Positions 1,161 through 27,371 of a stretch of 64,000 nt of DNA are shown one piece after another. Source of the DNA: Escherichia coli. GTDB lineage: Bacteria; Pseudomonadota; Gammaproteobacteria; Enterobacterales; Enterobacteriaceae. The notes beneath the pieces were generated by a model, which was not told the origin of the DNA, ran no database searches, and worked only from the letters and a program-made list of their open reading frames with translations. The translations under genes and the position numbers were made by a program. Within the stretch, counting starts at the first letter, position 1. Each line of letters opens with the position of its first letter. Location of the stretch: assembly GCF_022846255.1 (NCBI RefSeq), contig NZ_AP025682.1; one strand, given 5' to 3'.

Positions 1161-1180
<20 letters not shown>

Positions 1181-1802
1181 CTTTACCTGACCAGATAATT
1201 TCGCCCGTCTGCACCAGCATCAGCTGCATTTGTAGGGTCGGAGCGTTAACGTTGCCAGAGGCGCTGGAGTACAGCACGTAATGAGCGCCGACATTGCGGG
1301 CAATGCCTATGGCTTTACTACGGGTACCTAAACTGTCCTGCGGCGACAAACCTAACTGTTGCTTTGCCATCGACAGCTGCTGGGCGGAAACCAGGGTAAA
1401 TTTACCGTTATTAGCCAGCGCATTTCGCAGCGTTTCGGTCGCTTCTGCGGCATTCAGCGAACCGTTAGTACGGTTGTTAACGCTATCAACCAGCAGGACG
1501 CTACCCGCAGTCACGCCGTCAGCCCCAAGCATCTTACTGACCATCGGCTGCATTGCGCCATTCCAGTCATAATGGCGAATATGCGGCGCAGGCGGTGCAG
1601 TTTGATCTTCGTGCTCAATTGGGCCTGGCTGCTGCGGGATTGTCGGCACCGATGGCACTGTGGGGACAGGCTGTTGCGGCTCGGCTGGTTGTTCCGGCGC
1701 TGGTTTCACTTCTTCTACCGGCGCAGGTTCACGTTGCCCCACACACCCGGCGAGAAACATCGCCAGCGCGGTAATCAAGGCGTAGCGACTCATTTTTGTC
1801 AT
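1161..1802 (-). CDS. lpoB: outer-membrane lipoprotein activator of PBP1b (LpoB)
   Basis: ORF with lipoprotein signal peptide and lipobox ([20 protein letters not shown]) followed by a Pro-rich linker; start taken at second Met of the track ORF. Confidence 0.85.
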
Positions 1803-1815
1803 CAAGATTCACCCC

Positions 1816-2193
1816 TTACAAATATAGATAAAGTCTGACTTTGTGCGCCCCCAGAAAATTGGCGCTGCCGTACAGCGTTACCGCCGAATGTGCGGGAAGG
1901 GTAACGCTGCGTGGCCTTTCCAGAGGATGCATCTCCAGCCCTCTGGCGTCATACCAGTAAAAACGATAATGAACGGTAACGGGTTCTTGCCTTTCGTTAT
2001 AAAGCGTTGAGGATGCTGAAGGTTGAATATCAGACGTCGAAAGGACGGGCTTTTCTGCACTGATGCCCGCAGCCAATAAAGATGACTCCATCACCAGCGA
2101 TTGCTCATCATTCACCGGAATTTCCGGATGTGAACGACAGCCCACCAGCACTAACAACGCCAGAGACACCAGCCCAAAGCATCCTTTTCTCAT
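1816..2193 (-). CDS. ycfL: small secreted protein YcfL
   Basis: 125-aa ORF with N-terminal signal/lipobox (LVGC); synteny between hinT and lpoB. Confidence 0.75.
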   Translation of the reverse strand: MRKGCFGLVSLALLVLVGCRSHPEIPVNDEQSLVMESSLLAAGISAEKPVLSTSDIQPSASSTLYNERQEPVTVHYRFYWYDARGLEMHPLERPRSVTLPAHSAVTLYGSANFLGAHKVRLYLYL

Positions 2194-2195
2194 CG

Positions 2196-2555
2196 TTACA
2201 GACCTTTATGCGCCAGCATTGGTCCCAGCGGACGGCCACCCAACAAGTGCATATGGATGTGGTAAACCTCTTGTCCGCCATGGCGGTTGGTGTTCATGAT
2301 CAGACGATAGCCATCTTCGGCAATACCTTCTTGCTCAGCAATTTTTGCCGCTACGGTGATCATGCGTCCCAGCGCCTGCTCATGCTCAGCTGACACGTCG
2401 TTCACAGTCGGAATGAGGATATTCGGAATGATCAGAATATGCGTTGGCGCTTGCGGCGAAATATCGCGAAACGCCGTTACCAGATCATCCTGGTAGACGA
2501 TATCGGAGGGGATCTCACGACGAATAATTTTGCTGAATATAGTTTCTTCTGCCAC
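2196..2555 (-). CDS. hinT: HIT-family purine nucleoside phosphoramidase
   Basis: Histidine-triad motif HIHMHLLGG in translation; GTG start at 2553-2555 preceded by AAGGA is preferred over the upstream ATG at 2573, which lacks a Shine-Dalgarno. Confidence 0.8.
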
Positions 2556-2792
2556 GACATTTTCCTTTTTCAAATAGCCATGCGTTGCGCCATGCTACGC
2601 CGCGCCACACTGCGAGTATAGAGTATGGTCGAGTTAAACCTGCTCTTTCAACCTTAACTCACGATTTCTTAAGCAAAAAATCGTTTTGCTGCCGTATATA
2701 TCGCCATTATTCCCATTTCTGCCTGCGAATGCGCTGAAAAGACATTCTCTGTTTGGTTTACACGTCAAATATGAATGCGTATATTTCTCATT

Positions 2793-2806
2793 TGCATTTA
2801 CATGCA
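2793..2806. promoter_or_regulatory. perfect palindrome TGCATTTACATGCA in AT-rich fhuE upstream region; candidate repressor (Fur-like) site
   Basis: Palindrome read directly from sequence about 85 bp upstream of the fhuE start; Fur regulation of fhuE is established knowledge, the site assignment is a guess. Confidence 0.25.
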
Positions 2807-2888
2807 AAATTATTCGCACACTAAATATAACCGCTCATCACCCTCCTCCGGCATGAGCCTGACGACAACATAAACCAAGAGATTTCAG

Positions 2889-5078
2889 ATGCTTTCAACA
2901 CAATTTAACAGGGATAATCAATATCAAACCACCTCCAAACCGTCACTGCTTGCCGCCTGCATAGCACTGGCACTCTTACCTTCCGCCGCTTTTGCTGCAC
3001 CAGCCACTGAAGAAACGGTGATTGTTGAGGGTTCAGCCACTACTCCAGTTGATGACGAAAATGATTACAGCGTAACGTCTACGTCTGCGGGTACCAAAAT
3101 GCAGATGACTCAACGTGATATTCCTCAGTCGGTCACTATTGTTAGTCAGCAGCGGATGGAAGATCAGCAGTTACAAACGCTGGGCGAAGTGATGGAAAAC
3201 ACGCTGGGGATCAGCAAAAGCCAGGCGGATTCCGATCGTGCTCTTTATTATTCCCGCGGATTCCAGATCGATAACTATATGGTTGATGGTATCCCCACCT
3301 ATTTTGAATCGCGCTGGAATCTGGGCGACGCACTTTCTGATATGGCACTGTTTGAACGCGTAGAAGTAGTGCGTGGCGCGACAGGACTCATGACCGGGAC
3401 GGGTAATCCATCTGCGGCAATTAATATGGTTCGAAAACACGCGACCAGTCGTGAATTTAAAGGCGATGTCTCGGCGGAATACGGTAGCTGGAACAAAGAA
3501 CGGTATGTGGCGGATTTACAAAGCCCACTCACCGAAGATGGTACAATCCGCGCACGAATTGTCGGCGGCTACCAGAATAACGACTCATGGCTGGACCGCT
3601 ACAACAGTGAAAAGACCTTCTTCTCCGGCATTGTCGATGCTGATTTAGGCGATCTTACGATGCTTTCAGCCGGTTACGAATATCAGCGTATTGATGTTAA
3701 TAGCCCAACCTGGGGCGGTTTACCGCGCTGGAATACTGATGGCAGCAGCAACAGTTACGATCGCGCACGCAGTACCGCACCTGACTGGGCGTACAACGAT
3801 AAAGAGATCAACAAGGTCTTTATGACCCTGAAGCAGCGGTTTGCTGATACCTGGCAAGCGACGCTGAATGCCACCCACTCTGAAGTCGAATTTGACAGCA
3901 AAATGATGTATGTCGATGCCTATGTAAACAAAGCGGATGGTATGCTGGTTGGGCCATACAGTAATTATGGCCCTGGTTTTGATTATGTCGGAGGCACCGG
4001 TTGGAACAGCGGCAAACGTAAAGTTGATGCGCTGGATCTGTTCGCTGACGGTAGTTATGAATTGTTTGGTCGTCAGCACAATTTAATGTTTGGTGGCAGT
4101 TACAGCAAACAAAACAATCGTTACTTCAGTTCATGGGCCAACATTTTCCCGGATGAAATTGGCAGTTTCTACAACTTTAATGGCAATTTCCCACAAACCG
4201 ACTGGTCACCACAGAGCCTGGCGCAGGACGATACCACACATATGAAATCGTTATATGCTGCCACTCGTGTCACCCTTGCCGATCCGCTGCATCTGATCCT
4301 CGGCGCACGTTATACCAACTGGCGAGTTGATACGCTGACTTACAGCATGGAGAAAAACCACACCACGCCTTATGCTGGACTGGTGTTTGACATCAATGAT
4401 AACTGGTCGACCTACGCCAGCTATACCTCTATTTTCCAGCCGCAAAATGATCGTGACAGTTCAGGCAAATATCTGGCTCCAATCACCGGTAACAACTACG
4501 AGCTGGGTCTGAAATCGGACTGGATGAATAGCCGTCTGACCACCACGTTAGCCATCTTCCGTATTGAGCAGGATAATGTCGCTCAGTCCACCGGTACACC
4601 TATCCCCGGCAGCAACGGCGAAACCGCCTATAAAGCGGTGGATGGGACAGTCAGTAAAGGTGTGGAATTTGAACTCAACGGCGCAATTACCGACAACTGG
4701 CAGCTGACGTTTGGCGCAACGCGCTATATTGCAGAAGATAACGAAGGAAACGCCGTTAATCCTAATCTGCCACGCACCACGGTTAAAATGTTCACCAGCT
4801 ACCGGTTGCCTGTCATGCCAGAGTTGACGGTCGGCGGTGGTGTTAACTGGCAAAATCGCGTGTATACCGACACCGTGACACCGTATGGCACCTTCCGCGC
4901 CGAGCAAGGTAGCTACGCGCTGGTGGATCTCTTCACCCGCTACCAGGTGACGAAAAACTTCTCGTTACAGGGGAACGTCAATAACCTGTTCGACAAAACC
5001 TACGATACCAACGTGGAAGGTTCTATCGTCTACGGCGCACCGCGTAATTTCAGCATTACCGGCACGTATCAATTCTGA
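2889..5078 (+). CDS. fhuE: TonB-dependent outer-membrane ferric-siderophore (coprogen/rhodotorulic acid) receptor
   Basis: 729-aa ORF with signal peptide (ALLPSAAFA), TonB-dependent receptor character and C-terminal aromatic residue (…GTYQF). Confidence 0.9.
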   Translation: MLSTQFNRDNQYQTTSKPSLLAACIALALLPSAAFAAPATEETVIVEGSATTPVDDENDYSVTSTSAGTKMQMTQRDIPQSVTIVSQQRMEDQQLQTLGEVMENTLGISKSQADSDRALYYSRGFQIDNYMVDGIPTYFESRWNLGDALSDMALFERVEVVRGATGLMTGTGNPSAAINMVRKHATSREFKGDVSAEYGSWNKERYVADLQSPLTEDGTIRARIVGGYQNNDSWLDRYNSEKTFFSGIVDADLGDLTMLSAGYEYQRIDVNSPTWGGLPRWNTDGSSNSYDRARSTAPDWAYNDKEINKVFMTLKQRFADTWQATLNATHSEVEFDSKMMYVDAYVNKADGMLVGPYSNYGPGFDYVGGTGWNSGKRKVDALDLFADGSYELFGRQHNLMFGGSYSKQNNRYFSSWANIFPDEIGSFYNFNGNFPQTDWSPQSLAQDDTTHMKSLYAATRVTLADPLHLILGARYTNWRVDTLTYSMEKNHTTPYAGLVFDINDNWSTYASYTSIFQPQNDRDSSGKYLAPITGNNYELGLKSDWMNSRLTTTLAIFRIEQDNVAQSTGTPIPGSNGETAYKAVDGTVSKGVEFELNGAITDNWQLTFGATRYIAEDNEGNAVNPNLPRTTVKMFTSYRLPVMPELTVGGGVNWQNRVYTDTVTPYGTFRAEQGSYALVDLFTRYQVTKNFSLQGNVNNLFDKTYDTNVEGSIVYGAPRNFSITGTYQF

Positions 5079-26417: not shown

Positions 26418-27371
26418 TTATTTGTTGAGCTGGAAGAGCGACAATCCCTGCATATCGGTAAATGCTTTATACGATGCCTGCAATGCCGTTTGCTGCATGA
26501 TGTAAGATGAAATAGTTGCATTCCAGTCCACATCAACCAGATCGCTCATCTGCTGCGTTTGCCCTAAAGCGCGATCGCTACCTAATGAATCAAGCGACTC
26601 CAGTTCGTTCAGCTGCGTGCCTAATTCCGCGCGAACAGTCAGCACATTGTTCAGCGAGTTTTTCAGTCCGCGGTTGGTTTTATCCAGTGCCGCAGCGGCG
26701 GTTTCTTTATCCGCTTCGCTATCCGCGACCGGCGTTTTCAGGGCTGCGATGGCGCTATCCAGCATGGCAAAAAGATTGGTTTCAGAAGCGCTACCGTCTG
26801 GTTCCGCTACCGCGTTGCTGGTAATACTGTCGAAAATTTTGTCGCCCGTATGTCCTATCACCATCGAACGCGAAGCATCGACCTGTTGTTTAATACTTTC
26901 TGTTCCGCCGACATAATCACCGTCAGCCTCACTAAACGGCGCAGTCTCTGTTTTATAACCGGCAAAAATGTAGCGCCCGTTACCGTCAGTGGTGTTCGCC
27001 AGATTCAGTAACTGATCACGAAGCCCCTGAATATCCGTAGCCAGTGAGGCCCGGTCATCGTCACTCAAGGTGCCATTGCTGGCGTAGACAATTTTTTCCT
27101 GAGCATTCTGGATAGCAGTGGTGACCTGGCTAAGCACACTCTCTTCCAGTGACACTTTTTGAGTGGCGAAAGTACGCGCCAGCGTGTACTGGCTGTTTTG
27201 CGCCTGTGCCTGGGAGAGAACAACAGCTTGTGATGCAGCAATGGGATCGTCTGAAGGGTTAACGACTCGCTTACCCGTCGACATCTGTTCGCCGTACTTC
27301 ATCCATTCTGCCTGAGAATTGGTGATGCCGCGCATGTTTTGCTGGTACATCATCTGGGTACTGAAACGCAT
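26418..27371 (-). CDS. flgL: flagellar hook-associated protein 3
   Basis: 317-aa ORF with flagellin-like N- and C-terminal helical segments; last gene of the flg cluster. Confidence 0.92.
   Translation of the reverse strand: MRFSTQMMYQQNMRGITNSQAEWMKYGEQMSTGKRVVNPSDDPIAASQAVVLSQAQAQNSQYTLARTFATQKVSLEESVLSQVTTAIQNAQEKIVYASNGTLSDDDRASLATDIQGLRDQLLNLANTTDGNGRYIFAGYKTETAPFSEADGDYVGGTESIKQQVDASRSMVIGHTGDKIFDSITSNAVAEPDGSASETNLFAMLDSAIAALKTPVADSEADKETAAAALDKTNRGLKNSLNNVLTVRAELGTQLNELESLDSLGSDRALGQTQQMSDLVDVDWNATISSYIMQQTALQASYKAFTDMQGLSLFQLNK

Follow-up and report, generated by a model that had tools for sequence, protein, structure and literature searches.

The hinT gene in this DNA is almost certainly translated from the GTG codon at 2555..2553 on the minus strand, led by a Shine-Dalgarno (SD) sequence, to give a protein of 119 residues. 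The window, i.e., the whole stretch of 64,000 nucleotides of Escherichia coli chromosomal DNA that was analysed, had been the subject of an earlier note that proposed initiation at GTG 2553-2555, and this proposal is borne out independently by annotation and structure, by orthologs, by the conserved SD and by N-terminomics of K-12. The gene lies on the minus strand; the earlier note gave no strand. It is to be noted that the GTG start of hinT is already known from RefSeq, UniProt, PDB, and published N-terminomics and initiation-site ribosome profiling, and that the finding is correct but ordinary and matters little. The features of the start region are as follows, the last three being read directly from the sequence.

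2196..2555, minus strand: hinT coding sequence, purine nucleoside phosphoramidase (RefSeq CDS, NF007965, PDB 3N1S), 119 codons plus stop
2553..2555, minus strand: GTG initiation codon of hinT, CAC on the plus strand (sequence, orthologs, K-12 N-terminal peptides)
2563..2567, minus strand: Shine-Dalgarno sequence AAGGA with a 7-nt spacer (AAATGTC) to the GTG (anti-SD duplex, ortholog conservation)
2571..2573, minus strand: in-frame TTG six codons before the GTG, CAA on the plus strand, with no sign of start use
2595..2597, minus strand: in-frame TAG that closes the hinT frame upstream (at -42)
2558..2560, minus strand: out-of-frame ATG that follows the SD and lies 5 nt upstream of the GTG, with a 27-codon ORF (2480..2560) overlapping hinT
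2579..2581, minus strand: second nearby ATG, also out of frame

How would a ribosome choose among these codons? In the model that we prefer, AAGGA at 2567..2563 pairs with the 16S rRNA 3′ end, and the 7-nt spacer brings the GTG into the P site of the ribosome. The initiator tRNA then reads the GTG as formyl-Met to start a 119-residue protein, MAEETIFSK..., from which the initiator Met is partly removed, as expected for a protein with Ala in second position. The TTG six codons upstream is a chance codon in the 5′ leader. Nothing substantive stands against this model, and the N-terminomics described below leaves room for an extended HinT at a very low level.

Sequence Around the Start Codon

Around the hinT start, the minus strand reads ...gcgTAGcatggcgcaacgcatggctatTTGaaAAGGAaaatgtcGTGgcagaagaaact... 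Upstream of the GTG, the frame stays open for 13 codons, and this stretch holds a single start-type codon, the TTG; there is no in-frame ATG between the GTG and the stop codon at 2597..2595. The earlier note had placed an in-frame ATG at 2571-2573. A start-type codon does exist there, but its sequence is TTG, and as the rival codon is TTG and not ATG, the case for a rival start is weakened further. TTG is a rare start codon. As the main start of hinT it would give a protein of 125 aa, and in its favor it opens the longest ORF. The chance of finding one alternative start codon among 13 codons is about 46%, and therefore the presence of the TTG is by itself unremarkable.

When the 3′ end of 16S rRNA was slid along the 70 nt upstream of the start, AAGGA at 2567..2563 gave the sole appreciable anti-SD pairing (-5.6 kcal/mol), while the stretch that would have to hold an SD for the TTG had no site as strong as -2 kcal/mol. 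The GTG is thus preceded by AAGGA at a fitting spacing and the upstream codon lacks an SD, both as the earlier note had stated, and the latter speaks against the TTG as the main start. Anti-SD complementarity is found within 5-9 nt upstream of the GTG and is conserved among orthologs, as in an SD-dependent initiation site. The arrangement is that of canonical SD-led initiation at a near-cognate GTG: hinT likewise has a 5-nt AAGGA, a 7-nt spacer and a GTG used for the initiator Met, which is partly removed before Ala, and we see no difference between the two.

The hinT leader does not show unusual RNA structure. A 97-nt piece composed of the leader and the start folds no better than its shuffles (z = +1.56), which is consistent with an open initiation region, and RNA structure was dropped as a means to discriminate between the starts on the same ground. 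No Rfam family matched in the window between 2400 and 3000.

Identity of the Gene and Its Annotated Start

hinT sits between ycfL, located downstream, and the divergently transcribed fhuE. The K-12 gene (ycfF, b1103; UniProt P0ACE7; PDB 3N1S) is the same gene with the same annotated GTG start; RefSeq places it at 1161885..1162244 with 119 aa, and its neighbors fhuE, ycfL, lpoB, and thiK are those of the window. No difference was found between the K-12 hinT locus and the window; the window represents a different strain of E. coli, and SNPs occur outside this locus. The K-12 protein record, NP_415621.3, is at version 3, which suggests a past revision of the protein, possibly at its start.

A 751-nt query at the hinT site found matches in 5425 of 5426 complete E. 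coli genomes. In the same search with window 2150..2900, one of the 5426 complete genomes was without the region, and five of the 5427 matching places were on records labelled as plasmids. Over 2150-2900, the window and strain 2012C-4221 are 100% identical, and RefSeq gives this strain a 360-nt hinT CDS (119 aa) that starts at the GTG and corresponds to window 2196..2555. The annotation of 2012C-4221 was rejected as a proxy for the whole window, since SNPs and an indel separate the two outside the hinT locus.

The protein itself leads to the same start. Residues 2-119 of the window HinT are identical to the chain of PDB 3N1S, and both structures of E. coli HinT, 3N1S and 3N1T, consist of 119-aa chains whose first residue corresponds to the GTG position. 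The GTG-start protein scores 264.5 bits against the NCBIfam equivalog NF007965 (cutoff, 206) and is thus a member of this family, all 119 positions of the profile being matched by residues 1-119 of the GTG-start protein or by residues 7-125 of the TTG-start protein. In the long form, the six residues before residue 7 fall outside the profile, which argues against the TTG as the main start. HinT also belongs to the HIT superfamily, with 108.9 bits against a cutoff of 21.5 for Pfam HIT PF01230, and its translation contains HIHMHLL, the histidine triad motif H-x-H-x-H-x-x. Phosphoramidase activity is known from the literature for the identical K-12 protein. The literature on ecHinT also numbers the residues on the 119-aa protein (H101, deletions of 114-119), and reports that growth of a deletion mutant is rescued by plasmid-borne wild-type hinT.

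Both lengths of HinT are found in databases. In the collection searched, the 125-aa HinT is on record in 65 E. coli contigs (e.g., ADD55957.1) and in 744 contigs of Salmonella arizonae, and the 119-aa forms are present in at least 1000 contigs each for E. coli and S. arizonae. The use of the TTG in those E. coli deposits would favor it as the main start; deposited lengths were nevertheless set aside as evidence, both being choices of gene callers. For E. coli, the 125-aa entries are over-extended on present evidence, and the practical value of the result lies in annotation hygiene.

Comparison Among Enterobacterales

The ortholog set consists of 80 Enterobacterales loci with their flanks, one genome per species, anchored on the first residue of HinT. 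Together with the window, it makes 81 sequences, and the information content of alignment columns was calculated from the 79 unique ones. The codon aligned to the window GTG is ATG in 66 of the 80 species and GTG in the other 14, all from Escherichia, Salmonella, or Citrobacter. HinT begins with MAEETIFS in 79 species, and the remaining one has MTEETIFS. This conservation of the first residues is partly ascertained, as the loci were found with six peptide patterns including MAEETIFS; the pattern upstream is unaffected by this choice. Among the unique sequences, the signature of codons (2 bits, 2 bits, and a variable third position) starts exactly at the GTG column. Upstream of this column, three-base periodicity is absent and there is a single peak of conservation, at -14..-7, which corresponds to the SD. 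AAGGA with a 7-nt spacer is present in 54 of the 81 loci, and SD-like 5-mers lie at 6-8 nt from the start codon in nearly all of them. The AAA-AAG-GAA triplets that follow the TTG are conserved because they form the ribosome-binding site, not because they code for protein.

The codon at -18 is ATG in 12 loci, TTG in five and a non-start codon in 64 of the 81, and an in-frame stop interrupts the six extra codons in 16 sequences. Such stops, together with an upstream region that lacks codon-periodic conservation, count against the longer protein. The TTG is replaced by TTA in E. coli E69 (L003, 1183-1185), the only E. coli of the species set in which it was seen, and in Citrobacter amalonaticus (L004, L005). 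These TTA variants are a natural knockout of the alternative start. To judge from the aligned sequences, the six extra N-terminal residues are not conserved, so the ortholog alignment, which the earlier note had named as a way to refute the GTG start, does not refute it.

Within E. coli, the TTG is nearly invariant, a point in favor of the TTG as the main start. However, the codon is kept in most E. coli because diversity within the species is low: 5329 of 5425 E. coli genomes share all 90 nt of the start region without a mismatch. Variation in the E. coli population was accordingly rejected as a discriminator, being too small to inform.

Published N-Termini of K-12 HinT

The earlier note had also proposed N-terminal proteomics as a check, and published N-termini of K-12 do start at the GTG. 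TRAINSPOTTER (Van Damme, NAR 2026, PMC13245402) charts the N-termini of nascent E. coli proteins, and its Table S1, described there as 1082 initiation-indicative N-termini, contains three peptides of hinT b1103 in rows 236-238, which cover positions 1-12, 2-13, and 2-12 (PMC13245402). The peptide of positions 1-12 is Met-initiated and the others are Met-processed, and all are assigned to the GTG at NC_000913:1161885-1161887, a site backed by Ribo-RET, INRI-seq (INRI), and REPARATION (PMC13245402). A Met at the GTG position has no other source than initiation at this codon; read-through from the TTG would give Val. The table holds no alternative or upstream site for hinT; its rows are ordered by locus tag and go from b1103 straight to b1111 (PMC13245402). 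GTG starts make up 50 of the 688 annotated starts detected in this study of K-12 (PMC13245402).

The 60-nt start context given for K-12 in the table of PMC13245402 is identical to the minus strand of the window at 2585..2526. The experimental N-terminus and initiation peak of an SD-dependent site are thus at hand from the K-12 literature for an identical 60-nt context (PMC13245402), and we infer from this identity that the window strain probably behaves like K-12 at the hinT start.

Alternative Starts

The reading that survives best beside the GTG model is that both starts are used, with the GTG as the main start and a minor 125-aa form made in addition; the start of this form would be the E. 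coli TTG or, a more plausible case, the ATG at the same position in S. arizonae and the Citrobacter freundii group. The genomes of these last (L006, L008, L010-L015, L068) combine a GTG main start with ATG at -18 (attATGaaaaaggaaaacgtcGTG; 1183-1203 of each locus, the counterpart of window 2573..2553). It is attractive for this reading that all the 14 species with the weaker GTG as the main start are Escherichia, Salmonella, or Citrobacter, that 11 of them have ATG or TTG at -18, and that the 15 nt between both codons are almost identical across these three genera. Moreover, closely spaced alternative starts are reported to be common in E. coli (PMC13245402), and hinT, like genes in the Ribo-RET/TRAINSPOTTER catalogue of closely spaced N-terminal proteoforms, has two in-frame start-type codons, 18 nt apart. 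Unlike those genes, however, hinT has no alternative site in the catalogue, and its upstream codon has no ribosome-binding site. In E. coli, the -18 codon lacks an SD; the K-12 table has no upstream hinT site (PMC13245402); the 15 nt consist of the SD and its spacer, so that no coding role is needed to explain their conservation; and the other three of the GTG-start species have TTA at -18, so that variants without the upstream start exist inside the same clade. From Salmonella, no hinT entry is present in the supplements of PMC5576327 and PMC11005335, and this reading gains nothing from them. We therefore regard dual initiation as very unlikely. A related proposal, that Escherichia, Salmonella, and Citrobacter have come to use the weaker GTG in place of ATG as the main start of hinT and that, with an in-frame ATG or TTG six codons before it in most members, a minor 125-aa proteoform with an MKKENVV extension may be co-expressed, most plausibly in S. 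arizonae and the C. freundii group with their upstream ATG, is only slightly less doubtful.

Could the out-of-frame ATG at 2560..2558 also be used, either for a 27-aa overlapping peptide or to modulate initiation of hinT? This ATG adjoins an SD and heads an open frame of 27 codons, but just 2 nt separate it from the SD, Salmonella and Citrobacter have ACG in its place, most other species lack it, and conservation downstream tracks the frame of hinT only. Such use is hardly credible. As for the TTG as the main start of hinT, the TTA variants of E. coli E69 and C. amalonaticus, the non-start codons at -18 in most loci, and above all the K-12 peptide with Met, not Val, at the GTG position, beside a table from which the upstream site is absent (PMC13245402), leave it next to no chance, and the Met-initiated peptide has effectively refuted it already.

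Candidate Promoter and Operon Context

Upstream of the hinT start, one more feature was found by a consensus scan.

2615..2651, minus strand: candidate hinT promoter, inferred, with TTGAAA, 18 nt, CATACT, and then a second -10-like hexamer, TATACT

On the hinT strand, the scan gave a sole promoter-like match, 2651..2622, with 9 of 12 positions. Two -10-like hexamers are adjacent in 2615..2627 (minus strand) as CATACT, C, and TATACT. Both the TTG and the GTG would lie within a transcript from this candidate, and the position of the promoter was discarded as a discriminator between them. In 74 of the 81 Enterobacterales loci, a -10-like hexamer of the CATACT type precedes hinT, with its end 27-98 nt from the start codon, and it is likely to be a conserved promoter element. 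In Escherichia, Salmonella, and Citrobacter, the distance of the hexamer from the start exceeds that in Serratia, Pantoea, or Photorhabdus by about 25-30 nt. A direct repeat of GCATGGC also exists in the hinT leader, at 2595..2589 and 2583..2577 on the minus strand (12 nt apart); it lies within a stretch of the leader that is apparently extra in the Escherichia/Salmonella/Citrobacter clade, and it may be due to chance.

At the other end of the gene, the stop codon of hinT and the ATG of ycfL are 2 nt apart (TAAcgATG; 2193..2198, minus strand). Such a short gap is consistent with translational coupling in the hinT-ycfL-lpoB-thiK-nagZ operon. Farther along the same strand, lpoB (1161..1805, minus strand) has a start ambiguity like that of hinT: its annotated ATG start at 1802 is preceded by a single codon, a TTG, from which the longest ORF (MMTKMS...) runs. 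In addition, lpoB and thiK overlap by 20 nt (1161-1180).

Outside this region, flgJ (26418..27371, minus strand) is an intact ORF of 317 codons in the window. The annotation of strain 2012C-4221, which matches best at the hinT locus, has flgJ as a pseudogene with a frameshift. The coordinates of flgJ are offset by about 290 nt between the two. The intact flgJ and this offset mean that the strain of the window differs from 2012C-4221.
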